A stretch of 64,000 nucleotides of DNA from Mobula hypostoma (Eukaryota): positions 67,890,001-67,954,000 of the forward strand of contig NC_086101.1 in the NCBI RefSeq assembly GCF_963921235.1. The letters run 5' to 3'. This document shows, piece by piece, positions 1,115 to 59,152 of this stretch (the first letter of the stretch is position 1; every line of letters starts with the position of its first letter). The notes below the pieces were generated by a model. That model was not told the origin of the DNA. It ran no database searches and saw nothing but the letters and a program-made list of their open reading frames with translations. A program made the position numbers and the translations under genes.

Positions 1115-2089
1115 CACTAGCAGCGATGACAACAGAACAGCAATGATTGGTGTTTCTAGGAGTAATTCGGAAGGTTCAAGGATAGCTTAAATTGGTGGGA
1201 AGTTAGAAGATTGAAATGCTTTTAAAAAACAAAAGAAGTGAACTAAAAAGCAATAAGGAGAGAAAAGATGAAATATAAATTTAAGGTATACAAAAGAGGA
1301 TACCTAATGCTTTTTCAGATATATAAACTGTAAAAGGGAAGTGGAAGTGGAAGTGGAAAATAATGCTAAGGAGGTAGCAATGGGGGAAAAGAAATGGCGG
1401 AAGATCTGAGTAATAAGTTTTCACTGTGGAAGGTACCAGCAGTATGCCAGAAATTGAAGAGTGGCGGGGACAAAAGTGAGAGTAGATGCTGTAACTAAGG
1501 AGAAGGTCCTTGGAAGTTGAAAGGTCTGAAGATAAATAAATCACCTGGACCAGATGGACTCCATCCCACAGCTCTGAAAGAAGTCACTGAGGAGATTGTG
1601 GAGGCATTATTTATGATCTTTCTAGAATCACTAGGTTTTGGAAGGGCTCCAGAGCACTGGAAAATTGCAAATGTCACTCCTGACTTTAGGAAGGGAAGGA
1701 GGAAAAAGAAAGTAAAGTATAGGCCAGTTAACCTGACCTCAGTATTTATTGGAGCCCATTATTAAGGTTGAGGGTTTGCAATACTTGGAAGAGCATGATA
1801 AAATAGGCCAAAGTCAGCATGGTTTCCTGAAGGGGAAATCTTGCTAACAAATCTGTTTGGAATTCTTTGAGGAAATAACAAGCAGCATAGACCAATGAGA
1901 GCTGATGGATATTGTTTGTAATAATTTTCAGAAGGCCTTTGACAAGGAGCCACACATAAGGAGGCTGAACATGGTAAGAGCCAATGGAAAGATGGGGAAA
2001 ATACTACAATAGATAGAAAATAGGTGAATTAGCAGGAGGCAAAGAATGGAAATAAAAGGGACCTTTTCTGGTTGGCGACTGGTGGCTAT

Positions 2090-2532
2090 TGGCACCCCCA
2101 CCACCCAGACCACACTCTCTTCTCACTGCTGCCATCAGAAAGGAGGTACACAAGCTTTAGTTCCTATACCACCAGTTTCAGGAACAGTTATTTCCCATCA
2201 ACCATCAGGCACTTGAACCAGAGGGGTAACTTCAATCAGCTTCACTCACCCCAACACTGAACTGATTCCACAACATATGGATTCATTTTCAAGGACTCTA
2301 CAACTCATGTTCTCAATATTTGTTGCTTATTTATTTGTTATTAGCATTTCAGGTATTTTTCTCATTTTGTATTTACAGAGTTTGTTGTCTTTTACACATT
2401 GATTGTTTATCTATCTTTGCTATGTGTGCTTTTTAATTGATTCCATTGTGTTTCTTAGTATTTACTATGAATGTCTGCATGTATATGGTGACATATATGC
2501 ATTTTGATAATAAATTTGCTTTGAACTTTGAA
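2090..2532 (+). mobile_element. Rex1/L2-like LINE 3' fragment inserted in CR1
   Basis: HPDHTLFSLLPSERRY..FRNSYFP C-terminal motif; AATAAA and (TTTGAAC)n-like tail; splits the CR1 GW..V-SGVP region. Confidence 0.8.
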
Positions 2533-4245
2533 ATAGTAGTGTTCCATAGGGATGGCTGGTGGGACTGCATCTTTTCACATTATATGTCAAGGATTTGGAT
2601 GACAGAATTAACACCTTTTTGGTTAAGTTTGCAGATGATACAAAGATAACTGGAGTGGCAGGAGGTGTTGAGGAAGCAGGGAGCCTTCAGAAGGACAGAC
2701 AGATTAGAAGACTGGGCACAAAGTGGCAGGTGGAATATTCTGTAGGGAATTGTATGGTCATATACTTTGGTAGAAGGAATAAAGGCATTTTCTGAATAGG
2801 GAGAAAACCTGCAATCGGAGAATCATCAGGATTTGGCAGTCTTTGTGCAGGATTCCCTGAAGGTTAACCTGCAGGTTGAGTTGGTGGTAAGGAAGCCAAA
2901 TCCAAGGTTAGCATTTATTTTGAGAGGATTAGAATATAAAAGAAAGAATGTAATGCTGAGACTTTATCAGCTTTGGTCAGACCGCACTTGGAAGATTGTA
3001 AGCAGTTTTTTTATCTGAGAAAAGATGTGCTGGTATTGGAGATGGTCCAGAGGAGGTTAATAAGAATGATTCCGGGAACGAAAAGGCTAACATATCAGGA
3101 GTGTGTGATGGATCTGGGCCTGTACTCACTAAATTTTAGAGGAATGTGGTTGGCGGCCGGGGGAGTGTGGGGGGGTGGGGGGTGGGGGGTGGGATCTCAT
3201 TAAAACTTATCGAAAATATATTGAAAAACCCAGATATAGTGGATTTGGAGAGGATGTTTTCAGAGGGCACAGCCTTATAATAGAGCAAGGGCTTCCAACT
3301 AATATATACTGTAATGTCCTAACATGTACATTTATGAGAGAACATCCATATCTGCTTTTTCTATGCTCGAAGATACTGTATTAAGCTGTTTAACAGGGCT
3401 GTAAAGCTGTCTCAGTTATGCTCATATACCAACAGCAAATGAATGTGAAAGTGTTAATATGAACCCCATTTCATATAATGCCATTATACCTACCAAGCCT
3501 CCTTGTCCCTGATTTTAATCTCTCCCGAAATAATGTTCAAATTCTATTACATTATGATCATTTTCCTCGTATTCCCCTTGACAACAGGATTAACAATTAA
3601 CATTCCTTGTTACACAGAACAAGATACAGGTTACTTTTCTTTTCCCCCAAATTGGATTTCTACTGATCTACAAAAACATCTTATGTAATTCCATGAATTC
3701 ATTCCGCTCTCCATCATGATCTGTAAAGCCAATATTGTACTTATGCTTGGTGAAATATCAAAGAACAAGAGAGGATCTCATAAGAAGTCATGAATCTCTA
3801 ACTTAGACAGCATAGATACTGCGAGGTTGTCCTCGATTGGTGCAAAATCCAGGATCATATTTTATAGTCTCAGAATACCAAGTTCATTATTTTGAACAGA
3901 AATCATGAAAATTGTCTTCACATACAGAATTTCCTACTGCAGAATACAATGGGGACTATCATTAAAATACTTTAAAATGAAGATAGTCATGAATGTGAAA
4001 TAGATTGAAGGATGTAGAACAGGGAGTACTTCAGTGAATGATCAGTGAAGATTGTATTGAATAGATCAAAAGATAGATTGGCCTATCCCGTTCCTTTTCT
4101 GTTTGCTTTGGTGGGCAGGATTTGCATCTATTTTGTCTATATGGCACATTAAAACTTTAATCATGTGAATCAGCTCTATATGAAGTATTCTCAGCATTTA
4201 GCATTAAAATCCATCATCGAGCAAAGTTGCTTCAGCTATGGTAAG

Positions 4246-7189: not shown

Positions 7190-10100
7190 TAGCCTCCCGT
7201 TATGCTGTTCCTTATCGTGGTGGGGAGGTCTGTGTGCCTTAATGATCCTGGGAGCTATACCAGCTGGGACTTGAGTCCCTGGTAGGTTCAAACTTGCTGG
7301 GCAGTTCCAGGTGAAGGGCCAGATGAATACAGCACCTGGTCCTCCAGGTTGTGGGTTGGGCGTAGGGCCAGCAATCCTACCCTGTAAAATCTTTGCCACT
7401 ACAGAAACCGAAACAAGGAAATTTGTTGATGCCGGTGAGAGGAGTGATGCAGAACTGGGAACAGAAATTATGATGGACGGAGGTCAAAACCACCAGGACA
7501 TTTCCGGACTAAGAGCTTAATAGTTTCACCCAAAGAAACTATCCATATTGGATGCTGGAATGTTCGAATTTTACATCAAACTGGAAAGCTTGCACAGACT
7601 ATCAAAGAGATGCATAACTACCAAATACAGCTGCTTAGAAACAAGAAACACATTGGACAGATTCTGGAAAGCGACCCCTAGCGTCTGGCGATACAATCAT
7701 TTGGTCAGGTCGCAAGGACAACCACCATTTACAAGGTGTGGCACTCATCATGGTTAAGGATGCCTCGAGGGCCTTATTAGAATGGAACCCCATCTATGAA
7801 AGACTCCTGTATGTTTGTTTAAACTCTAAGTTCGCTAAACTGTCCATAATTGTGGTATATGCATCTACTGAGGATGTGGAACAAGAAACTAAAGATGAGT
7901 TTTATAACAACCTTCAAGCTGCCGTGGAAAAGATCCAAAACACAATGTGCTCATTATAATGGGGGATCTTAATGCAAGAGTTGGCAGTGAAAACAGCAAT
8001 TGCGAAAGTACATGGTGATGAAGTCACAAATGACAATGGTGAAAAGCTTTGTGACTTTTGTGAAATGAACCATCTTACAGTAGGAGGCACCATTTTCCAG
8101 CATAGAGATATCCATAAACTTATGTGAAAATTCTCAGATGGAAAACAGAGAGTCAGATTGACCATATCATTATCAACAACAAATGGAAGAGATCACTCAA
8201 CGATGTTCAGGTAAAAAGGCTAGCAGATGATAGCAGCGATCACCATCTCCTTGCAGCAAAAGTGAAACTAAAATTGAGGAAAATGAGAATGGGCTTAGGC
8301 AGAGGCTGACGCTTTGATTCCAGCAAACTTCAAAACTTTGAGATACAGAGAAAAATTACGCTCAAACTTACAAACAGATTTAGCATACTTGGCAAAGATA
8401 CTGACATGACAATCCTCGACTTTAATAATGTGATGAAGGAGACTAGTAAAGAGATCCTGGGATACCAAAAGAAATGGAAAGAAGAATGGATTAGTGAGAC
8501 AACCTGGATGAAAGTAATGAAAAGGAAAGAAACCAAGAAAAGAATGTTGAGTACAACTTCCCGTCGCCTGAAGGAAAGACTTGCTGAATATGCCGAGAAT
8601 GACAAGGATGTTAAACGAAGCTGCAGAAAGGACAAGCGACAGTATTTTGAGACATTTGCCTCAAAAGCTGAAGAAGCTGCAAAAAATATGGATAGGAGAA
8701 CATTATACAAAATAACCAAGTGCATGAAGGGGAGCTATGGAAATAAGCATGATATCACTATAAAAGCAAAGGATGGCAATATTATCGAAAGCGAGAAAGG
8801 AATAACCACCAGATGGAAAGAACATTTTAAAGCAGTTTTGAATAGACCAACACCTCGAGAAACCCTTGAGATTTGTGAGAGTAATGAAGACCTTGATATC
8901 TCCACAGAACCACCTACAGTTGAAGAAGTCCAGCAACTATCAAGAAAATGAAGTCAGTAAAGGCACCCAGAGAAGATGAGATAAGTGCAAAAATGCTTAA
9001 GGGAGGTGGCAGAGAAATGTGCCGTGTGCTGTGTCAAATCTTTAACACCATCTGGAAAAGTGAAGAAGTGCCGGAGGAGTGCAAAACTGGACTTACTGTA
9101 AAACTGCCAACGAAAGGGGATTTAAGTATATTCGACAACTGGAGAGGTGTTATACTCCTCTCAATTACAAGCAAAGTTTTCAGTCTTATCTTGTTAAATC
9201 GGCTCTCAGAGGTTGTGGAAGATATCATCTGGAAAGAACAAGCTGGCCTTAGAAAAGATCGATCTTGCATAGGCCATATATTCGTACTAAGACAAATTCT
9301 CGAACAATCTGCAGAGTGGAACAACAATCTTTATGTACTATTTGTGGACTTCAAAAAAACATTTGACAGTATCCACCAAGAAACACTCTGGAAAATTTTA
9401 AGAAGATACAGATTTCCCCAAAAATTTGTAAACATTATCCAAATGATGTACAGTGACTTTCAGTGCAAGGTGATTTGTGGAAAGCAACTGACAGAAAGCT
9501 TCAGGGTATGCACAGGAGTTAAACAGGGATGTATACTATCACCTTTTTTCTTCTTTTTAGCAATGGATTGGCTTATAAGGGAAACAATCACTGAAAAGAA
9601 ATGGGGTATTCAATGGACACTTACCTCAACACTTGAAGATCTAGTTTTTGCTGACGATATCATTCTGCTAGCGAGTCGTCATTGTGACATTCAGGAGAAA
9701 TCAGACAGACTTACATCATATGCATCACAACTTGGGATGAACATTCAAGTGAGAAAAACAAAGATCATGAAGATGAACGCTTCCAACCTCCAACCAGTAA
9801 TCATAAATAATCAGCAAGTGGAAGAGGTAGATGAGTTCACGTACCTTGGGAGTAAAGTCAGCACTGATGGAGATAATGGTAAGGACGTATTAGCAAGACT
9901 CTCTAAAGCAAATCAAGCTTTTGGCAGCTTCAATGCAGTTTGGAAATCCACACAACTCAAACTTAACACCAAAATCAGATTTTTTAAAAGCAATGTCCTA
10001 AGCATGCTACTTTATGAAAGTGGATGTTGGGAGATGATGAAAGACATCTGAAAGAGACTTGACACATTCCAGACAAAATGTCTAAGATGTATCAAGAAGA

Positions 10101-19626: not shown

Positions 19627-22600
19627 CCTGGCACACTGGGGGGGTGTCCGACAGCTCGCCTCAGCGTTCCTAATGGCCAGCACTACTTAATGTTCTTGTC
19701 TTAAAGTGTGTTTGTGGAATTCTGGTGAGATGTTAAAGTTCATTTGTTGTTACATTTTAGCTCAGGTTGTATAGTTATTCACTTGTGTGTTTGTGGGTCA
19801 CCCTGACTGTAACCAGGGTGTGTGATCATCACCTCCCCCGTCTGTATGAGTCTGAATTGGTTCTCGCCAAGCAATGGCGCTCTGTCCATTATTCGGCTTG
19901 TCACAATAAAAAACATCTTTTGAGATAAACAAGTTCTTCTCATCTGTCATCATGGACTGAATGCTCACCTCACTGGTGTCAGGAGTGGGATTGGAAATTG
20001 GTGGCAAAATTGAAGAGCTGTGACATCAGCTGGACCCGGGGAGTAAGTCGAAGAACCCAGCGGTATGCCAGCCCCGCATCTCTGGACCAGGCTCCCGAAG
20101 ACAGGACAGCAACCTGGAGGGAGAGCCTGTGAACTGAGCATCATGTCTTCCCGGGGAACCCGATGAGGCAAGTGTACCCAGACAACCCAACCCCAGGTAC
20201 ATGGTGCAGAGCATCAGCTGCCTACATCATGGCCCACACCGGGTAACCCAAGAGAGAACAGGCAACGCTGCAGGTACCACTGACGCCACTAGAGAAAGGG
20301 GAGGACCAATCGGCCTCAGCAGTTCATGCTACAAGGTCCACCCTGAAGTTTGACAGATACAATGGTACCAGCCACCTGGAGCCTTTTTTTTGGTGCGAGT
20401 CAAACTTGCCGCACGGCACAGCAGCTAGAGCCCCAGCGAGACTGTGGTGAACCTTGCTCTGATGCTGAAGGGGGATGCCCTGTGGACCCTCCTCAACTTA
20501 AAACCAGCTGAGCGGTGTGACTACAGGGCCCTCGTAGTGGCACTGGAGTGGCATTTCGGGCAGGCACCACTGGAGGAAGCAATGAAGGAAGAACTTGGCA
20601 GCAGGGAGCAGCATGTGGAAGAAAGCCTGGGGGTGTTCACGGCAGATCTCCGCCACTGTGCTCGGCATGGCTATCCCCAGTTCCTTCCTGCGGCCCAGGA
20701 AGAGCTTGCCCTCCGTGCCTTTGTAAAGCCACTGACACTGGACCGCCTTTGGCAGCATGTTTGCCTGGTATCATCATCGTCGCTGGACGAAGCGTTGGCT
20801 TAGGCAGAGAGGGCAGTAGCAATTTTAGACCCCCCCCCCCAAGCGTTCCGGCGTCACCTCGCATGCCAAGAGCCTGTGCTTGTGTCACCGAGGCAGAGGA
20901 GGAAACTAATGAGGTGGAACCCATGCAACAGGACCAACTAGTGCCATGCTGCTCCCACCACGTGCCACAGTGCGACCTCTGCCACTGGTGCAATGAGGCA
21001 GACCATTTGGCCTGGGACTGCCCCGCACCAACACCACGCCAAGGCCCAGCGCAGTCATCGGGATATGCCAAGTGGGCAGCGCTGCCCGAGAACAAGCAGC
21101 ATCCCTCTCTGGGTGGGTCATTTGGGTGAAGAGCAAGGCTTATAATTGGACGGCGTGGTGGAGGGCATTAAATGTCGTGAACACATGATCAACCATCAGC
21201 ATCTTCTGTCCCGTTGTCCCCCACAACACAGACCAGCCGTCCCCGCCTGGGTGGGCAACGACGGCACTTCAGCTGACTGCAGTCACCGGCAACTGTATGG
21301 TGATGAGAGGGGAGAGGTGGCTGTGCATCTCAGTGGGGAAAAGCAGTGGAGCACGAGGTTTGGTTAGCTGACATCTGGGACTCCTGCATCATTGGCTTCG
21401 ACCTGCTTTCGCGCTGGTGGGGGCCCGTGTGGATGTGCTGAGGGGGCAGCACTCTACCTCGCCACTGGTACAGGGAAGCTCCAGGAAGCAGACCAAGCGG
21501 GCACAGCAACAACCACCACCGGCCTCACAGCAGCCCGCAGCAGTCCCACACAACACAGCAGAGCTAGGGCCAGGCAACGATGGCGACACTTCAGGTGACA
21601 GCTGGCAGCGAGGTAGACTTCCCTAACATTGACTATCAGCTGCTGTGCAGTGAGCAGGAGAACGATCCTGTGCTGGCCTGATTGAGGGGATGGCTGAGCA
21701 TGGGATGACGGCTGGAATGGGCAGGGGCCTCTGGAGACCAAGGCCCTATACTCTCAGTGGGGAACGATGGAGATGTGCGATAGGTTGCTGTTCTGGCCAT
21801 GGAGGTGGAAGTTTACTAATGGCAAAAAACATCTCCTGCAGCTGGTGGTCCCCCGGGGGCTCCGCACGGTTGTGCTGCAGTCGGTGCACGGGCTGGAGTG
21901 GCGGGGTGGAGGGTGGTCATTTCATAATCACAAAGACGTTGAGAAACGTGCATGAATGCTTCTATTGGCCAGGCTGCAGGAGCTGTTCGTGCACTACTGA
22001 AATGCTTGAATGCCCCAGAAGGGGCCAGACCACCAGTCTGGGGAACCAATGCAGCAATAACTGGTAGGAGCACCAGTATGCATCTCCTGCCTCACCTAGA
22101 TGATGGGACTATCTCCCAAGCTTGGAAGTCACTGGAAAAGGCCAGGAAAAGTGTTCCACCATATCTCCGATGTGGTAACCCAGGTGTGGTTGCCTGAGCA
22201 GTGGAAGGCAGTCATGCTGCACTGGGATCAGCTGGCACCCTTGGCCACCACCAACCCGGTGAACCGGAAGGAAGGAAATGATACTCTGTGCACCCTGCCT
22301 CTTATTTCACCAAACAGTGCCTCCCCTTTGGGGTTGCCATGGACGGCAGATCCCTCAGGTGGGAGCAGTGTGGCGTTCCAGGAGCTTGGTCAACAGCTTG
22401 CCCCAGCATTCCTAGCGGCCAGTGCTACTTATTGTTCTTGTTTTAAAATGCGTTTGTGGGACTATGGTGAGATGTTCAAGTTCATTCATTGTTACATTTT
22501 AACTCGGTTATACAGTTGTTTGCTTGTGTGTTTGTGGGTCACTCTGACTGTAACCAGGGTGTGCAGTTGTCTTTCCTCCTATCTGTAGGTGACTGAGTTG

Positions 22601-26669: not shown

Positions 26670-27330
26670 GGAGTTTGATGAGCAAGTCAAATGCAATGTT
26701 AGCATTCATTTTGAGAGTACTAGAACATAAAAGCAAGCTTGTAATGTTGAGATTTTATAAAGCACTGATGAGGCCTCACTTGGAGTATTGCGAGCAGTTT
26801 TGGATCCTTTATCTAAGAAAGGATGTGCTGACGTTGGAGAAGGTTCAAAGGAAGTTTTCAAAAATCATTCTGGGATTGAAAGTCTTATCATACAAAAATT
26901 GTTTGATGTCTCTAGGGCAGTATTCACTGAAATTCAGAAGAATGAGGGGTGATTTCATTGAAACCTATCGAATATTGAAAGGCCTCAATAATATGGAGAG
27001 GATGTTTCCTATAGCGAGGGACTCGAAGAACAGAAGATACAGCCTCAGAATATAGGAGCATCCTTTTGGAATGGAGATGAAAAGGAATTTCTTTGGCCAG
27101 GCAGTGGTGAATCTGTGGAATACATTGCCACAGGTGGCGGTGGAGGCCAAGTCATTGTGCGTGTTTAAGGCAGAAGTTGATAGATTTATGATTAGTCAGG
27201 GCACGAAGGGATATGGGGAGAAAGCAGGACATTGAGACTGTGAAGGAAAATGGATCAGCCATGACGACTTAGTGGAGCAGACTCAATGGACCAAATGGCC
27301 TAATTCTGTTCATATATCTTATGGTCTTCT
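26670..27330 (+). mobile_element. CR1 3' fragment
   Basis: ORF 26675-27055 ..YKALMRPHLEYCEQFW..RMRGDFIETY; CR1 3' UTR and TTATGGTC-type tail. Confidence 0.9.
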
Positions 27331-31680: not shown

Positions 31681-31839
31681 CTGTCAGTCTACACAGCATT
31701 AATCAAAATTGCTACACATTGGGGCCCAAAGCCCTGAAAACATAGAAACATAGAAACATAGAAAATAGGTGCAGGAGTAGGCCATTCGGCCCTTCGAGCC
31801 TGCACCGCCATTTATTATGATCATGGCTGATCATCCAAC

Positions 31840-34839
31840 TCAGAACCCAGCCTTCCCTCCATACCCCCTGACCCCTGTAGCCACAAGGGCCATATCTAAC
31901 TTCCTTTTAAACATAGCCAATGAACTGGCCTCAACAGTTTGCTGTGGCAGAGAATTCCACAGATTCACCACTCTCTGTGTGAAGAAGTTTTTCCTAACCT
32001 CGGTCCTAAAAGGCTTCCCCTCTACCCTCAAACTGTGACCCCTCGTTCTGGACCTCCCCAACATCGGGAACAATCTTCCCGCATCTAGCCTGTCCAATCC
32101 CTTTAGGATCTTATACGTTTCAATCAGATCTCCCCTCAATCTTCTAAATTCCAACGAGTACAAGCCCAGTTCATCCAGTCTTTCTTCATATGAAAGACCT
32201 GCCATCCCAGGAATCAATCTGGTGAACCTTCTTTGTACTCCCTCTATGGCAAAGATGTCTTTCCTCAGATTAGGGGACCAAAACTGCACACAATACTCCA
32301 GGTGTGGTCTCACCAAGGCCTTGTACAACTGCAGTAGTACCTCCCTGCTCCTGTACTCGAATCCTCTCGCTATAAATGCCAGCATACCGTTCGCCTTTTT
32401 CACCGCCTGCTGTACCTGCATGCCCACTTTCAATGACTGGTGTATAATGACACCCAGGTCTCGTTGCACCTCCCCTTTTCCTAATCGGCCACCATTCAGA
32501 TAATAATCTGTTTTCCTATTTTTGCCACCAAAGTGGATAACTTCACATTTATCCACATTAAATTGCATCTGCCATGAGTTTGCCCACTCACCCAACCTAT
32601 CCAAGTCACCCTGCATCCTCTTAGCATCCTCCTCACTGCTAATACTGCCACCCAGCTTCGTGTCATCCGCAAACTTGGAGATGCTGCATTTAATTCCCTC
32701 ATCCAAGTCATTAATACATATTGTAAACAACTGGGGTCCCAGCACTGAGCCTTGCGGTACCCCACTAGTCACCGCCTGCCATTCTGAAAAGGTCCCGTTT
32801 ATTCCCACTCTTTGCTTCCTGTCTGCTAACCAATTCTCCACCCACACCAATACCTTACCCCCAATACCGTGTGCTTTAAGTTTGCACACTAATCTCCTGT
32901 GTGGGACCTTGTCAAAAGCCTTTTGAAAATCCAAATATACCACATCCACTGGTTCTCCCCTATCCACTCTACTAGTTACATCCTCAAAAAATTCTATGAG
33001 ATTCGTCAGACATGATTTTCCTTTCACAAATCCATGCTGACTTTGTCCAATCATTTCACCGCTTTCCAAATGTGCTGTTATCACATCCTTGATAACTGAC
33101 TCCAGCAGTTTCCCCACCACCGACGTTAGGCTAACCGGCCTATAATTCCCCGGTTTCTCTCTCCCTCCTTTTTTAAAAAGTGGGGTTACATTAGCCACCC
33201 TCCAATCCTCAGGAACTAGTCCAGAATCTAACGAGTTTTGAAAAATTATCACTAATGCATCCACTATTTCTTGGGCTACTTCCTTAAGCACTCTGGGATG
33301 CAGACCATCTGGCCCTGGGGATTTATCTGCCTTCAATCCCTTCAATTTACCTAACACCACTTCCCTGCTAACATGTATTTCGCTCAGTTCCTCCATCTCA
33401 CTGGACCCTCTGTCCCTTACTACTTCTGGAAGATTATTTATGTCCTCCTTAGTGAAGACAGAACCAAAGTAATTATTCAATTGGTCTGCCATGTCCTTGC
33501 TCCCCATAATCAATTCACCTGTTTCTGTTTGCAGGGGATCTACATTTGTCTTTATCAGTCTTTTCCTTTTTACATATCTATAAAAGCTTTTACAGTCCGT
33601 TTTTATGTTCTCTGCCAGTTTTCTCTCATAATCTTTTTTCCCCTTCCTAATTAAGCCCTTTGTCCTCCTCTGCTGAACTCTGAATTTCTCCCAGTCCTCA
33701 GGTGAGCCACTTTCTCTGGCTAATTTGTATGCTACTTCTTTGGAATTGATACTATTCCTAATTTCTCTTGTCAGCCACGGGTGCACTACCTTCCTTGATT
33801 TATTCTTTTGCCAAACTGGGATGAACAATTGTTGTAGTTCATCCATGCAACCTTTAAATGCCTGCCATTGCATATCCACCGTCAATCCTTTAAGTGTCAT
33901 TTGCCAGTCTATCTTAGCTAATTCACGACTCATACCTTCAAAGTTACCCCTCTTTAAGTTCAGAACCTTTGTTTCTGAATTAACTACATCACTCTCCATG
34001 TTAATGAAGAATTCCACCATATTATGGTCACTCTTACCCAAGGGGCCTCTCACGACAAGATCGCTAATTAACCCTTCCTCATTGCTCAAAATCCAGTCCA
34101 GAATAGCCTGCTCTCTAGTCGGTTCCTCGACATGTTGGTTCAAAAAACCATCCCGCATACATTCCAAGAAATCCTCTTCCTCAGCACCTTTACCAATTTG
34201 GTTCACCCAGTCTACATGTAGATTGAAATCACCCATTATAACTGCTGTTCCTTTATTGCACACATTTCTAATTTCCTGTTTAATACCATCTCCGACCTCA
34301 CTACTACTGTTAGGTGGCCTGTACACAACTCCCACCAGCGTCTTCTGCCCCTTAGTGTTACGCAGCTCTACCCATATCGATTCCACATCTTCCCGGCTTA
34401 TGTCCTTCCTTTCTATTGCGTTAATCTCTTTTTTAACCAGCAACGCCACCCCACCTCCCCTTCCTTCATGTCTATCCCTCCTGAATATTGAATATCCCTG
34501 AACGTTGAGCTCCCATCCCTGGTCACCCTGGAGCCATGTCTCTGTGATCCCAACTATATCATAATCATTAATAACAATCTGCACTTTCAATTCATCCACC
34601 TTATTACGAATGCTCCTTGCATTGACACATAAAGCCTTCAGGCGCTCTTTTACAACTCTCTTAGCCCTTTTTAATGCTTGCCCTGGATTTGTTGGCCTGC
34701 CACTTTTACTTTTCCCCTTTGTACTTTTTGCTTCTACGCTCACTTTACACCCCTCTGTCTCTCTGCACTGGTTCCCATCCCTCTGTTGTGAACTAACCTC
34801 CTCACACCTAGCCTCTTTAATTTGATTCCCACCCCCCAA
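31840..34839 (-). CDS. CR1 ORF2: APE endonuclease plus reverse transcriptase (999 aa open; TTG at the track start, frame open to 34860)
   Basis: NARS, GITETW, YRPP, GDFN, SDH (APE); KSPGPDG, YRPVSLTS, YLDFQKAFDKV, SGVPQGSVLGP, FADD (RT); no stops. Confidence 0.95.
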   Translation of the reverse strand: MGGGNQIKEARCEEVSSQQRDGNQCRETEGCKVSVEAKSTKGKSKSGRPTNPGQALKRAKRVVKERLKALCVNARSIRNKVDELKVQIVINDYDIVGITETWLQGDQGWELNVQGYSIFRRDRHEGRGGGVALLVKKEINAIERKDISREDVESIWVELRNTKGQKTLVGVVYRPPNSSSEVGDGIKQEIRNVCNKGTAVIMGDFNLHVDWVNQIGKGAEEEDFLECMRDGFLNQHVEEPTREQAILDWILSNEEGLISDLVVRGPLGKSDHNMVEFFINMESDVVNSETKVLNLKRGNFEGMSRELAKIDWQMTLKGLTVDMQWQAFKGCMDELQQLFIPVWQKNKSRKVVHPWLTREIRNSINSKEVAYKLARESGSPEDWEKFRVQQRRTKGLIRKGKKDYERKLAENIKTDCKSFYRYVKRKRLIKTNVDPLQTETGELIMGSKDMADQLNNYFGSVFTKEDINNLPEVVRDRGSSEMEELSEIHVSREVVLGKLKGLKADKSPGPDGLHPRVLKEVAQEIVDALVIIFQNSLDSGLVPEDWRVANVTPLFKKGGREKPGNYRPVSLTSVVGKLLESVIKDVITAHLESGEMIGQSQHGFVKGKSCLTNLIEFFEDVTSRVDRGEPVDVVYLDFQKAFDKVPHRRLVCKLKAHGIGGKVLVWVENWLADRKQRVGINGTFSEWQAVTSGVPQGSVLGPQLFTICINDLDEGIKCSISKFADDTKLGGSISSEEDAKRMQGDLDRLGEWANSWQMQFNVDKCEVIHFGGKNRKTDYYLNGGRLGKGEVQRDLGVIIHQSLKVGMQVQQAVKKANGMLAFIARGFEYRSREVLLQLYKALVRPHLEYCVQFWSPNLRKDIFAIEGVQRRFTRLIPGMAGLSYEERLDELGLYSLEFRRLRGDLIETYKILKGLDRLDAGRLFPMLGRSRTRGHSLRVEGKPFRTEVRKNFFTQRVVNLWNSLPQQTVEASSLAMFKRKLDMALVATGVRGYGGKAGF

Positions 34840-34844
34840 CCATT

Positions 34845-35078
34845 CTAGTTTAAAGTCACCTCAGTAGCCCCCGCTAATCTCCCTGCCAGGATATTGGTCC
34901 CCCTAGGATTTAAGTGTAACCCGTCCTTTTTGTACAGGTCACACCTGCGCCAAAAGAGGTCCCAATGATCCAAAAACTTGAATCCCTGCCCCCTGCTCCA
35001 ATCCCTCAGCCACGCATTTATCCTCCACCTCATCGCATTCCTACTCTCACTGTCGCGTGGCACAGGCAGTAATCCTGA
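34845..35078 (-). pseudogene. CR1 ORF1 C-terminal part (SGNH/GDSL esterase-like)
   Basis: SGLLPVP..N.WLR.W...GF.FLDHW..F...YK.DGLHLN..G with the DxxH esterase motif; stop TAG at 34845-34847. Confidence 0.9.
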
Positions 35079-36599
35079 GAAAACAGGCATCTGAGCTCCT
35101 CTCAAAACAGTAAAAGCTAGGAATTCTTGGTGTAATTGCTCATACTATGTTTTTTTTTACAAAATCAAGTGCAGGCAGATGAAAGTACTCTAACAACATA
35201 GTACAAAGACTGGACACATTCTTCTACATCATTCTCTGGCCCATCTCTCCAATACATCAAACTGATTTTTTGAAGTTCAGTTCCATTTCTGTCCTGCTCA
35301 ATTTTTCATGAAAGTTCAAGGAACCATTTTTCATTTTGGTTAAGGGAGGTAACTGAGATTAACACTTTTCAAAGAGATTATATCTTATGGATGAATTTAG
35401 ATTTCTCCAATGATAGTAAATGCATCTGCATAACTGTCACAGATAATTGGCAATTTAACTGCTTAAGAAGTGTGAAAGGGGCATTTCTCCAGCTTTCAGT
35501 CATTATCAGTCAAGGATAAGGATATTATATTATTTTCTACTGATAAAAATGATTTAAGCCACTTCTAAGTACAGCTTTTGTTTTTTTAAAATGTGCCTCA
35601 AGTTTGTGGTCAATATCAGTAGTTCCTTAAAAATCTATGTCAGCAAAATTAAAGATATTCTAACAATCGAAGTACAAGTTCTGGCAGTCTATTGCAATCT
35701 TTGTTGCTTTATAGATTTATGCAGCGCTACAAGTTTTTAGGATTTGCTGCATACGAAGAACTACACAATTGTATACAAAATTTTAAGAATTTCGTCCAAT
35801 ATGATGTAATAATTTGTATGTCATATTAAATTTCACAATGATGTCAATGAATAGCAACTTCTTTGTTTTTACTTTTATACTCCCCTTATGCTCAGAATGA
35901 TTTTGTGGTGACCATTATGTTAATTCCAGGCTGCATTTGCTGCCCACTTTATGAATGCTGTTATTTTCAAGAGTATATTCTGTACTTCCTAATTTGATAT
36001 TTTTTAAGTTAAATCTGTGCATTTTTAAAGTGTGTTGCTCATAACATTCACACAGGTCAATGAAAAACCTTAGCAATTAACATGACTATGTACTATAAAG
36101 CAAATAAATTACACACAGATCTTTAAACAGAAGAACAACAACTACATCTACAGGCACTACTCTGTTATTGGCAATCTGGGAGTTCAGTTTTCATGAATAA
36201 TCTAGCCCTCACGCTCAATAAACTTGAACCCTCCACCAATGGGAGCATTTTCAATCTCCTTTCTCTTCCTTTACCTTTCATAATCTAAATGCCTCTATTA
36301 GATCTCCCAGCAATCTACATTGATCCAAAGCCAGCAGCTCAAGCTTCGCCAATCCCTCCACATCACTAAAGACCCTAAACTTTGCATTGATTCCAATGTA
36401 CCCAGGACAAATCTGATCACACTCTGAAATTGGTCTTTTACGCTGGAAATGTCCACATCTCTTTCTGAGACGATCTTAGACTGATTTAGGGACATAAGAT
36501 AGTGAGGGCAAATAACTAGTAAATAGGGACCAATGAACCATTCACAATTCAGTTTTTGTAATGAAACGTGTATGTTAATGTAACAGGGCTGCTTCCTTT

Positions 36600-44109: not shown

Positions 44110-45530
44110 TCAACAACCTCAAACATGAAATGACAGGGAACTACAGTCCAGTGAGCATGACTTCAATTGTAGGGAAGTTATTGGAGGGAATTCCAATGGA
44201 CAGGATCTACTGCCATTTGAATATTGTCAAGGCTGATCAGAAATAGTCAGTATGGTTTTGTGTGCATGGGAGGTCATGTCTGACAAATCTTTTAAAGTTT
44301 TTCAAAGACGTAACTATGGGGAAAGGTGAAGGTCAGGTATTGACTGTGGTCAATATGCACTTTCTCAATATGCAATATGCACTTGCCTTTGACAAGGACC
44401 AATTTGGCACATGAATCTGGAAGGTTAGGTCACATGGAAGTCAGAGGGAGCTAGCGAGGTGGATTCAGAATTGAGTCAATGATATGAAGCGGAGGGTTAT
44501 GATTGGAGTTCAACTCTCTTACTAGAAGTCTGTAAATCGAGGGATCCTTAAGGGTCATTGTTGGCACCTCTGTTATTCATTGTTTATGCAAATAACTTTC
44601 ATATGAATGTATCTGGCATGATCAGCAAGCTTGCTGATGGTGCTAAATGAGAGAGCCATGTTGATAGTGAAGCAGGTAACAATGAATTACATTTCATTGC
44701 ATTCATCATTTACGGAGATGGGCTGAGAAATGCCGAATGGGTTTTAACTTAGATAAATATTAGGTGATGTACCTTGTACATTCAAGCCAGAGTAAGGACA
44801 ATACAGTGAATTGCAGGGCACTAACAAGTGTTGTGAAACAAAGGGAGTATAAGTGCACAGTTCTCTGAAAGAGGCCACACAAGTAGACAGGGTGGTGAAG
44901 AAGGTGTCTAGCATGTTGGCCTTCATCAGTTAGGACAATGAGTTTAGGAATATGGATGTTATGTTGCAGTTATGTAAGTAATTGGTGAGGCCATAATTGG
45001 AAATTGTGTACAATTTTTGGTCATCCTCTTATAGAAAGACATTGTCAAGTTGCAGAGTGTGAAAAACACATTTGTGAGAAACCTGCCCGCACTTGATGGC
45101 CTGAGTTATAAGAATGGACAGCCAAAATGGATCTTAGCTATCCAGTCCCCAGAGAAGCTTATAAAATCATAAAGGATATGGATATGGGGGATGGTCATAG
45201 TCTTTTCCCAGAGGTGGTGAGCTCAGAACTAGAAGGCACAAACATAAGATAAGAGAAAAGAGTTGGAAAAGAGACCTGAAATGTATCCTCTTTGGAGATG
45301 GTAGTGAGTATCTGCAATGAGCTGCCAGAAAAAGTGCCGGGCTGGATACAATTTCAGCATCTGAGAGCCACTTGGATTGGTACATAGAGGGGAGGGGTGG
45401 GGCTTGGAGAATTATGGGCCATATGTGGCCAATTGGGATTAGAGGTGACAATGCTGTGGTTGACATGGAGCAGTTGGGCTGAAGGGCTTGTTTCTGCGCT
45501 GTATTAATCTGTGACTCTGTGACTCTAATT
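44110..45530 (+). mobile_element. Old CR1 LINE (RT to 3' end)
   Basis: GNYSPVSMTSIVGKL, AFDK, KLADG, LVRP remnants; (TGACTC)n tail. Confidence 0.82.
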
Positions 45531-48199: not shown

Positions 48200-51100
48200 G
48201 AAGGTTTAGGGAAGTGGTGAGACAACTGGAATCAAAGACATGTGCTCCTGAATTTGATGATGATCCAGAAAAATATAAGATTTGGAGAACATAAGTTGGG
48301 TGTTAGATCTTCTGAAAGGGTCAATATCAGCAAGACCAGTTATGGTTGGTGGATTTTTTCAGCAAACATCCAATCCAGCATAATATTCATTTGACATGGA
48401 GGCATTGAGAGCAGATATTGTGCAGTTTCTAAAGGAGCTGAAGCAAACCAACTGCAAAAGTGGATTATCTCCTAAGCAATGTTTCACATAGATGAAGTGG
48501 GGATCCTTAGTAATAGGATGGCCTCATCCATGTTTATTTTGAGAGATGAGAAAACTGCTCCAGCTTACAAGACAATGAAAGGTCATCTTACATTTCTCCT
48601 TTAGGTGATGCCGAGGGTAACTGTAAGCTTAATTCTCTCCGTAAGACCATAAGATATAGGAGCAGAATTAGGCTATTTGGCCCATTGAGTCTGTTCTGCC
48701 ATTTCATCATCGCAGATCCATTTCTCCTCTCAGTCCCAATCTCCTGTCTTTTCCCCATATCCTTTCATGTCCTGACCAATGAAGAATCTATCAAACTCTT
48801 CCTTAAATATACGCAAAGACTTGCCCTCCACAGCTACCTGTGGCAAAGAATTCTGCAGATTCAGCACTGTCTGGCTGAGGAAATACTTCTACATCTCCGT
48901 TCTAAAAGGACACCTCTCTATTCTGAGGCTGTGTCCTCTAGTCTTAGACTCTCCTACAATAGGAAACATTCTCTCCATATCCACTCGATCAAGGCCTTTC
49001 ACCATTCAACAGATTTCACTGAGGTCATCCCTCATTCTTCTGAATTCTAGTGACTACAGACCTGGAGCTATCAAACACTCTTGACAAACCATTCAATCCT
49101 GGAATCATTTTCGTGAAAATTCTTTGAACTCTCTTCAGTTTCAGCACATTCTTTCTAAGATAAGGAGCCCAAGACTACTCACAATACTCCAAGTGAGGCC
49201 TCACCAGTGCTTTATGAATTCTCAACATTACATCCTTGCTTTTATATTCTAGTCCTCTTCAAATGAATGCTAACATAGTATTGCCTTCCTCACCACAGGC
49301 TCAACCTGCAAATTAACTTTAGGGAATCTTGCACAAGCACTCCCAAGTCCCTTTGTGCTTCTGCTTTTTGTATTTTCTCTCCATTTAGAAAATAGTCAAG
49401 CCTTTCATTTCTTACGAATGAAGTGCATGACTATACACTTCCCGATACTGTATTCCATTTACCACTTCTTTGCCCATTCTCCTAATCTGTCTGTCCTTCT
49501 GTAACCTACTTACTTCCTTAGAACTATCTACCCCTTCACCTATCTCATAAAGGTCTGCAAACTTTGCAACAAAGCCATCAATTCCATCATCTAAATCATT
49601 GAAATATAACGTAAAATGATTTAGTCCCAACACCAACCACTGTGGAACCAGCAGCCAACCAGAAAAGGCTCCCTTTATTCCCACTCTTTGCCTCCTGCCA
49701 ATCCTCCACTGCCTTATCCATGCTAGAACTTTTCCATTGGTTTGCTGCTTGTTAAGCAGGCTCATGTGTGGCACCTTGTCAAAGGCTTTCTGATAACCGA
49801 AATACACAACATCAACAGACTCTCCTTCATCTATCCTGTTTGTCATTTAATCAAAGACTTACAATGTATTTGTCAGGCAAGATTTTTCCTTGAGGAAACC
49901 TTGCTGACTATGGTTTATTTTATCATGTGCCTCCAAGTACACTGAGACCTCATCCTTAATAATCGACTCCAATATCTTCCCAACCACTGAGGTCAGGCTA
50001 ACTGGCCTTTAGTTTCCTTTCTTCTGTCTCTCGCCCTTCTTGAAGAGTGGAGTGACATTTGCAATTTTCCAGTCTTCTGCAACCATACCCGAATCTTGTG
50101 ATTCTTCAAAGATCATTACTAATGGCACCACAATCTCTTCTGTCAGCTCTTCCAGAACCCTGGGGTGTACACCATCTGGTCCAGGTGACTTATCTACCTT
50201 CAGACCTTTCAGTTCCCCAAAAATCTTCTCTCTATTAATGGTAAATTCACACACCTCATGACCCCTGATACTTGGAACTTCCCCCAAACTGCTAGTGTCT
50301 TCCACAATGAAGACTGATGTAAAATAATTATTCAGTTCATCTGCCATTTCTTTGTTCTCTCATGGCCCCAGTTCTGGCTAACTCCTCTCTCATGCCTCTG
50401 TAAATTCCTTTACTCCACTGTAATACTGATAGAGCTGACTTTAGCTTCTCTTCAAAATTCAGGGTGAATTTGATCACTTTCCCCTCAGGGTTCTTTTACC
50501 TTAAGATCTCTAATCAATTCAAGTTCATTACACAACACCCAATCTAGAATAGCTGAGCCCCTAGTAGGCTGAACCACCAGCTGTTCTAAATAGCCATCTC
50601 GTGGGCATTCTAGAAATTTCCCCTCTTGAAATCCAGCTCCAACCTGATTTTCCCAATCTACCTGCATATTGAAGTCCCTCCTAGCTGTTGTAACGTTGTC
50701 CTTTTGGCATGCATTTTCTGTCTCCCATTGTAATTTGTCAACCACATCCTTACTACTGTTTGGGGGTCCGTATACAACTCTCTTAATATGCCATTCAGAG
50801 GACGTGCAAAGACACCTTCAAATGTCAACCTTCCAGTGGTGTGATAACTTAACAAACTGCATTCCTTCCTCCACTATCAAACTGTATTATGCTGGAAATA
50901 ACCTGGGTCAGTTTCAATGAAAGCCATAAACACCTAGTTTTTGTTGAAGACATAGTTGACATAATCCAAGTCATGTTTTAGGTTCCATTGTCCATGGACC
51001 AGGAAGTTACTGTGGTCAGCATTCATTACCTTTAATGTCCAAAAATAATCAATAACTGTTGCAAGAAATCCGGAAGAACTCCAATATCATGATAATTATT

Positions 51101-58106: not shown

Positions 58107-58654
58107 TAATGATCCCTTTTGGACTGCTATTTATTTCCACAGATGTATCGATTTCACTTTCTGTGTTAATACAAGTGTCCTTTTGAGAACTCTAATCTAT
58201 GTATTCATATCTTCACATCCCTCTGCCAAGATCTATCTGTTATTCTCCATTCTTGTTTTCGCTGTGTGACCGCAATTCACCTCACATGCCTCACAATGGA
58301 GCCCTGAACTACATCCATGTGATCAGTGAGTCTTTGCACAAGTTCCAACTAATTGTGTGTCAATCCAACGAGCTGCTTCTGTTGGCTGCATATCATAGAT
58401 AGCGACTCCACCTGTCAGTTTTTGGTTGAACTGGTGCTGTTGTTCTGACATTGGGGATTGTGTGGTCTCCTAAACTTCCTTTTTTATTTTTCTTCCTCAA
58501 ATTTGGCAAGGATCATGTTGATATTTTTGATTTCCAGTTAACTGGAAGTCGATGAGAGACAGATTTTGACCCAAAGCTTCATGATGTGGAAATAAGATTG
58601 GTGACTCTATCATGATCACTCTGTTCAACACTGGCATCCTGACTGTCATGATGG

Positions 58655-59152
58655 TGTAGCTGGGCAGAATGTATATGGCTTGTCATATGAAGGGCGTTTG
58701 ATGGTTCTGGGCCTATATTCACTGGAATTCAGAAAAATGAAGGATGACCTCATGCAAACCTATTGAATGGTGAAAGGCCTTGATAGAGGGCATGTGGAGA
58801 GAGTGTTTTCTATGGTGGGAGAGTCTAAGTCCAGAGAACACAGCCTCAGAATAGAGCAACATCCTTTTGGAATGGAGATGAAGAGGAATTTCTTCAGCCA
58901 GTAATCGGTGAGTCTGTGGAATTCTTTGTCACAGACATCGGAGGATGCCGAGTCTTTATGTATATTTATGCCGAGGTTGATAGATTCTTGATTGGTCAGG
59001 ACATAATGGAATACAGGGAGAAGACAGGAGAACGGAGCTAAGAGGAAAATTGGATCTGCCATGATGAAATGGTGGAGCAGACTCAAGGGTTCAATTGGCC
59101 TAATTCTGCTCCTATAGCTTATGGTTTTATGGTTTTATGGTCTTATGGTCTT
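58655..59152 (+). mobile_element. CR1 3' fragment inserted in the Gypsy element
   Basis: LSYEGRL..LGLYSLEFRK; 3' UTR; (TTATGGT)n tail. Confidence 0.88.

Follow-up and report, generated by a model that had tools for sequence, protein, structure and literature searches.

The closest described relatives of the element considered here are the canonical esterase-type CR1 elements of vertebrates, in which the first open reading frame (ORF1) is of type IVB, comprising a zinc finger/leucine zipper (zf/lz) plus an esterase (CR1 subgroup 7, PMC4120745; survey, PMC13343379; statements on papers cited by PMC number refer to the parts covered). In the present study, we analyzed a stretch of 64,000 nucleotides (nt) from Mobula hypostoma (contig NC_086101.1, positions 67,890,001 to 67,954,000 of the forward strand), hereafter the window, which carries on its minus strand a copy of a long interspersed element (LINE) of the esterase CR1 type and of very young age. 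This element resembles the canonical CR1s in its esterase ORF1 with N-terminal Cys pairs, its ORF2 for an apurinic endonuclease (APE) and a reverse transcriptase (RT), its hairpin/octamer 3' end, and its frequent 5' truncation. Unlike here, the coupling of ORF1 to ORF2 is unaddressed in the covered parts of both papers, and the word "frameshift" is absent from the main text, as far as covered, of these papers and of a squamate CR1 survey (PMC11303007). [quoted passage not shown]

Regarding the well-known sites of -1 frameshifting, those of coronavirus 1a/1b (U_UUA_AAC) and of gag-pol in retroviruses and LTR elements share with the CR1 junction an in-register X XXY YYZ heptamer at the end of the first frame, a polymerase ORF in the -1 frame, and a short overlap. 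CR1 differs from them in being non-LTR, in placing a stop codon right after the heptamer, and in having a G-run at a fixed distance in place of a pseudoknot or stem-loop, and its site is a predicted one. Heptamers of the UUUAAAC, GGGAAAC, and AAAAAAC types are named among the most shifty for mammalian ribosomes in PMC5009743, the covered text of which treats HeT-A, TART, and L1 without mention of CR1. [quoted passage not shown] The likeness to CR1, which similarly lacks a predicted structure and has a conserved motif of low complexity approximately 10 nt 3' of the shift site, is an analogy only; unlike in PRRSV, the CR1 motif is G-rich, the heptamer is canonical, and no trans-activator was identified. 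Synthetic UUUAAAC constructs shifted at approximately 7% with an optimal G-quadruplex (four G3 tracts, 6-8 nt spacer) and at 0.4% in a disrupted control (PMC3919603); they have the same heptamer and a downstream G-rich tract, and CR1 differs from them in showing a two-tier pattern at most (5/12 representatives).

Among non-LTR elements, L1 (unconventional initiation) and SART1 (UAAUG) are, like CR1, transcribed into bicistronic RNAs that need low ORF2 output, and they differ from the route proposed below in producing a separate ORF2 protein and needing no slippery heptamer. For non-LTR elements of Paramecium, +1 frameshifting or reinitiation has been suggested (PMC5405496). No link between CR1 and frameshifting was present in the covered parts of PMC5009743, PMC13343379, PMC4120745, PMC11303007, PMC3708506, PMC3905857, PMC4255032, PMC5405496, or PMC11835228, and the literature searched, which did not extend to the founding CR1 papers, held no report of CR1 frameshifting. 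It is quite possible, at rather less than an even chance, that an earlier remark on the overlap of the CR1 ORFs exists in the literature.

The junction and its conservation

Across the ORF1/ORF2 junction, the minus strand reads ...GTG ACT TTA AAC TAG AAT GGT.... An earlier note on this DNA had claimed that ORF1 ends in TTTAAAC as T-L-N-stop, that the -1 frame is open from 34860, that a TTG takes the place of the "M" of ORF2, that the first ATG comes late, and that a G-rich tract starts 5 nt past the heptamer, all of which agreed with the sequence (Table 1). The TTG is located at 34839-34837, the first ATG lies past the NARS, ETW, and YRPP motifs, and the tract begins with TGG at 34842, its uninterrupted G-run being reached after a 10-nt spacer. 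The window contains 15 TTTAAAC sequences on its two strands together, and TTTAAAC stands directly before a stop triplet in 1 of 6876 cases, the corresponding figure for any X XXY YYZ heptamer being 32 of 6876. In the window family, the -1 frame is shut by a TGA that lies two codons 5' of the heptamer, and neither codon in between is a start; an upstream start as the source of the conserved F-K-L is therefore impossible in this family.

The heptamer is conserved at the nucleotide level, at synonymous positions. Loci were collected via ORF1 proteins, and the junction was placed by a hidden Markov model without the last 8 residues, which made the count blind to the junction; 29 siblings, 3 loci from a junction query, 16 non-CR1 loci, and 8 duplicates or loci without flanks were omitted. 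A junction-pattern search (845 matches) was not counted for conservation, and the loci L105-L107 and L225-L228 derived from it were excluded. In 100 of 140 distinct loci (60/85 in an earlier set), TTTAAAC stood precisely where predicted. It was also the majority state in all large clusters of ray loci, with 39/55, 14/29, 15/27, and 9/12 from the commonest 13-mers alone. Among 27 metagenome loci, the "bird/reptile-like" label of which rests on protein resemblance only, the ORF1 end was present in 11 and the junction was reached in 9; the heptamer was exact in 6, displaced by an indel in 1, mutated in 1, and absent in 1.

In ten family representatives with ORF1 identities of 21-70% (21-35% between ray and bird/reptile-like elements), xxT TTA AAC was fixed: the last Leu was TTA and the last Asn AAC in 10/10, and the codon before Leu ended in T in 10/10, though its amino acid varies among T, G, D, A, S, and C. 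Ten other invariant ORF1 residues in the same set show mixed codons; the two other invariant Leu residues use four codons each, and the other invariant Asn splits 6:4. Fixed third positions amounted to 4/139 in ORF1, 3 of them inside the heptamer, and the expected joint usage of the heptamer codons was 0.009-0.019 per lineage. In ORF2, one codon was kept at 6 of 50 invariant residues other than Met and Trp, 4 of the 6 being the F-K-L residues and the G-run Gly. The ORF1 stop is TAG or TAA by family. An alignment of junctions across CR1, as proposed in the earlier note, showed that the heptamer and the -1 phase are kept in at least seven blind-found ray families and in bird/reptile-like CR1s. 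As a separate observation, a G-run just 5' of the heptamer varies in length in family F5 (loci L154-L173), shifting the apparent ORF1/ORF2 phase in several copies.

A protein set of 254 homologues, of which 204 contain the esterase C-terminal segment and 184 end near the expected place, provided a wider view. Among these 184, the ends were L-N in 134, G-N in 10, K-N in 3, and diverse in 37, such that 147/184 were compatible with X XXY YYZ versus a background of 4.9%; the named L-N proteins come from rays, sharks, coelacanth, frogs, turtles, squamates, and a hummingbird. The residue before L-N varies greatly but was one without a U-ending codon (K, E, Q, M, W) in 2/134, or, after collapsing, in 1/57 versus 56/342 for the residues at -4 to -9 (p=0.002 in a Fisher test, the rows of which are not independent), and this scarcity is the trace that a constant U in front of UUA would leave. 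Q precedes G-N in 9/10, which fits CAG GGA AAC, and the three K-N ends form one cluster; the ends of these distant relatives are compatible with G_GGA_AAC and A_AAA_AAC. The DNA of the G-N and K-N families was not found among the viral and genome contigs searched, matches in the latter being mostly bacterial esterases.

Several other observations were made. The distant proteins ending in Q-G-N or x-K-N are P0116, P0172, P0173, P0180, P0184, P0194, P0197, P0215, P0236, and P0242 as well as P0183, P0253, and P0254; other distant esterase ORF1 proteins end in F-F-R or have K-N 8-12 residues before the stop. P0021, named a Pseudomonas hydrolase, resembles a fish CR1 ORF1. The contig L138, assigned to a bacterial metagenome-assembled genome, carries an unrelated LINE of eukaryote type with an esterase-like ORF1 segment, likely from host contamination; its ORF2 of 1013 codons is in the -1 phase with a 49-codon overlap, and the heptamer is absent at the stop.

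Translation of ORF2 and alternative explanations

ORF2 has no conserved start codon. The first in-frame AUG before the endonuclease was located at codon 4 (two), 5 (three), 16, 19, 23, or 39 in 12 representatives and was absent in three (F1, F6, and F7), as also in F8, an eighth ray family found via the junction pattern. The linker from the junction to the endonuclease varies in length (about 30-110 codons, or about 40-111 when measured to NARS) with the frame kept, and ORF2 is in the -1 phase in copies that are open from the junction into the endonuclease. We consider it likely that ORF2 is produced by programmed -1 frameshifting as an ORF1-linker-endonuclease-reverse transcriptase fusion, which would be 1,313 aa in a full-length copy. 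The fusion by frameshifting claimed in the earlier note gains support from the conservation of the heptamer and -1 phase at synonymous positions and from the lack of a conserved ORF2 AUG. The majority of ribosomes would terminate, yielding the 311-aa ORF1 protein, and a minority would slip one base back on tRNA-Leu/tRNA-Asn (UUA AAC to UUU AAA) when facing the stop codon and resume at CUA, setting a Gag:Gag-Pol-like ratio of the ORF1 protein to the fusion. The adjacent stop codon and the G-run at a fixed distance may help the slip. A weak signal could be enough, given that LINEs require ORF2 protein in small amounts.

The candidate for a stimulatory signal is the G-run. GGGG starts at +10/+11 past the heptamer in 12/12 representatives, usually followed by a second GGG, and codon 7 of ORF2 is GGG in 8/8 versus 23-38% GGG usage for Gly. 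The region 3' of the heptamer is purine-rich and folds no better than shuffles, and its first 40 nt hold 2-9 C and, thus, few partners for the G-run. Two candidate pairings of the G-run were rejected: that with ORF1 codons 35-45 nt upstream was confined to ray families, and that with the hairpin at the 3' end, through its 3' strand, was unsupported, the strand being sequestered in its own hairpin without covariation. The latter pairing ranked 1/128 bins in the window, 2-9 in six further ray copies, of which one has an unusually long span, and 27/121 in a bird/reptile-like copy, and 15/23 loci gave no ranking.

Considering the evidence as a whole, a number of points weigh against frameshifting. 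Local stem-loops were not found, with z-scores of 90-nt folds between -2.1 and +2.1 in 12 representatives, and no long-range pairing partner recurred across families, in a search that consisted of minimum-energy folds and duplex scans without a dedicated pseudoknot predictor. Rfam gave no relevant match at the junction, and the two-tier G-quadruplex pattern was present in only 5/12 representatives, including the window family. The exact heptamer was missing from the predicted place in 40/140 blind loci; those inspected were mostly decayed copies with single substitutions or indels. The ten representatives were hand-picked among copies with an intact junction, and the heptamer covariation in the G-N and K-N families is deduced from protein. 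A weak search of four longer protein matches yielded no natural family with an in-frame ORF1-ORF2 fusion. In a separate observation, the reading frame of four proteins in the database continues past the esterase into F-K-L; these look like single copies with an indel and provide no evidence of expression.

An AUG at ORF2 codon 4-5 in 5/12 representatives, with a UAAUG stop-start overlap in two of them (L097 and L054), and a TTG at codon 5-6 in F1, F5, F6, and F7 also count against frameshifting, and they favor termination-reinitiation at an AUG or near-cognate codon just past the ORF1 stop in the -1 frame, for which UAAUG coupling in SART1 (PMC3708506) and AUG-independent initiation of L1 ORF2 (PMC5009743) are precedents. 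This explanation has a low probability; reinitiation may also run beside frameshifting in some families. It leaves the fixed synonymous bases 5' of the stop and the switch to other slippery heptamers unexplained; F4 and F8 have no AUG or near-cognate at codons 4-6, the window family and 6 further representatives lack a SART1-type AUG at the ORF1 stop in the ORF2 frame, and the AUG that lies 1 nt past the stop in the window family is in the +1 frame, where, in the window copy, it opens no more than 8 codons. Regarding L097, L092, and L054, in which an in-frame AUG overlaps the stop (UAAUG) right after the heptamer, their families could combine frameshifting with SART1-like reinitiation.

The L-N tail, which is invariant in alignment A1, may instead be kept for the function of the ORF1 protein, with the heptamer as a by-product; this is very unlikely and is already largely refuted by the synonymous control, in which the codons for the Leu and Asn residues that are invariant elsewhere in ORF1 change freely, and the codon just before L-N, itself variable, keeps its third base. 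Moreover, the ZfL2-1 esterase construct (PDB 4c1b) ends approximately 2 residues past profile position 317/321, without the L-N tail. The AG at the end of the window-family TAG is what a 3' splice acceptor through which ORF2 is reached would need, and yet the stop is TAA in several families and TGA in single copies, such that AG is not conserved, and none of the best 15 of 44 joints recurred at the junction in the element sense, weak evidence drawn from the contigs of four runs with a guessed RNA status; splicing has a very low probability. The same low probability is given to an RNA-level signal apart from decoding, such as protein binding or packaging, with ORF2 obtained from 5'-truncated transcripts or leaky starts. 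The conservation of the G-run without a partner strand is as expected for a protein-binding site, whereas such a signal would not fix the ORF1-codon register, the -1 phase of ORF2, or the X XXY YYZ form, and a start at AUG 209 would remove most of the endonuclease.

In addition to the frameshift itself, a broader proposal may be made, which we regard as doubtful. All jawed-vertebrate esterase-type CR1s and the distant esterase elements of the G_GGA_AAC or A_AAA_AAC type may have used a retrovirus-like Gag-Pol strategy for more than 400 million years, in which a protein (ORF1p or a host G-run binder) docking on the G-run 9-10 nt downstream, and not an RNA structure, would stimulate the shift, and ORF2 output would thus be regulable.

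The element, its family, and the rest of the window

The window copy is 5'-truncated at 35080, leaving the last ~78 ORF1 codons, and is therefore unable to make the fusion itself; it is a passive record of the junction. It is 99.3% identical to the sibling L001 up to 35080. A 351-nt junction-spanning query gave 1070 candidates in its own genome, and among 40 scored, 24 were at the top score with 100% identity (its own place included); a complete 311-aa ORF1 was present in 15/30 sibling loci fetched. The ORF1 frame in the window matches Pfam Lipase_GDSL_2, ORF1 of L001 gave an SGNH esterase match (PF13472, E=3e-16), and the ORF1 profile matches the ZfL2-1 esterase structure 4c1b at 5e-42. Two CxxC pairs, as expected for the zinc finger/leucine zipper type, are visible in the translated full-length sibling ORF1, and the ORF2 matches (PF03372, PF14529, and PF00078) represent the APE and RT of esterase-type CR1s. 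CR1 elements lack poly(A) and bear at the 3' end a hairpin together with tandemly repeated octamers, and this 3' end is present in the window copy. The nearest named ORF1 homologues of the window family come from rays, and its APE is 41-42% identical to those of bird/reptile-like relatives.

Table 1. Features of the CR1 copy in the window (window coordinates).
Feature	Position	Strand	Basis or remark
Remaining 3' part of CR1 ORF1 (C-terminal portion of the SGNH/GDSL esterase), ending T-L-N-TAG	34845..35080	-	Pfam; sibling alignment
Slippery heptamer U_UUA_AAC in ORF1 codon register	34848..34854	-	Sequence; conservation
ORF1 stop TAG, immediately 3' of the heptamer	34845..34847	-	Replaced by TAA in other families and by TGA in single copies
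G-run plus GGG, candidate stimulator, 10-nt spacer	34828..34837	-	Conserved position; putative function
ORF2 frame, -1 to ORF1, 1006 aa stop to stop	31840..34860	-	A shifted ribosome would enter at CTA 34848-34846
APE endonuclease domain	34024..34584	-	Pfam PF03372, Exo_endo_phos, aa 93-279
First ATG of ORF2, codon 209, within the endonuclease	34234..34236	-	
Reverse transcriptase domain	32512..33165	-	Pfam PF00078, RVT_1, aa 566-783
8-codon ORF in the +1 frame (not the ORF2 frame)	34817..34843	-	AUG 1 nt after the ORF1 stop
CR1 3' end	31741..31806	-	Hairpin 31806-31768 (-23 kcal/mol); three TTTCTATG octamers 31764-31741

Two loci showed further features. The 5' untranslated region of the full-length sibling L001, about 400 nt upstream of ORF1, contains a ~170-nt tandem unit with a GC-rich block and TTTAAAA. 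L219 (G000:C21:108145900-108151000) has a 5' part of the F6 family and a 3' end of the window-family type that comes ~1 kb late, and possibly represents nested or chimeric copies. Elsewhere in the window, decayed RTE-like reverse-transcriptase ORFs, labeled by motif resemblance, are located at 8310-10051 on the plus strand, and CR1/L2-like RT fragments at about 331-1110, 1514-3140, 26678-27229, 44124-45336, 48742-50778, and 58614-59003. A GC-rich island (58% vs about 40%) at 20001-22000 contains overlapping ORFs, one with a CCHC-like motif.

Significance for CR1 biology

Most non-mammalian vertebrates have CR1 as their dominant retrotransposon, and the translation of LINE ORF2 is a long-standing open question, which the conserved slippery site makes testable in CR1 with one synonymous mutation. 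If frameshifting is the route to ORF2, ORF2 starts annotated at the first AUG would be wrong, and engineered CR1 constructs would need the junction. A very common class of vertebrate transcripts would then bear a natural -1 signal without an obvious structural stimulator, and the CR1 enzyme would be an ORF1-ORF2 fusion that tethers a membrane-targeting esterase to the reverse transcriptase.

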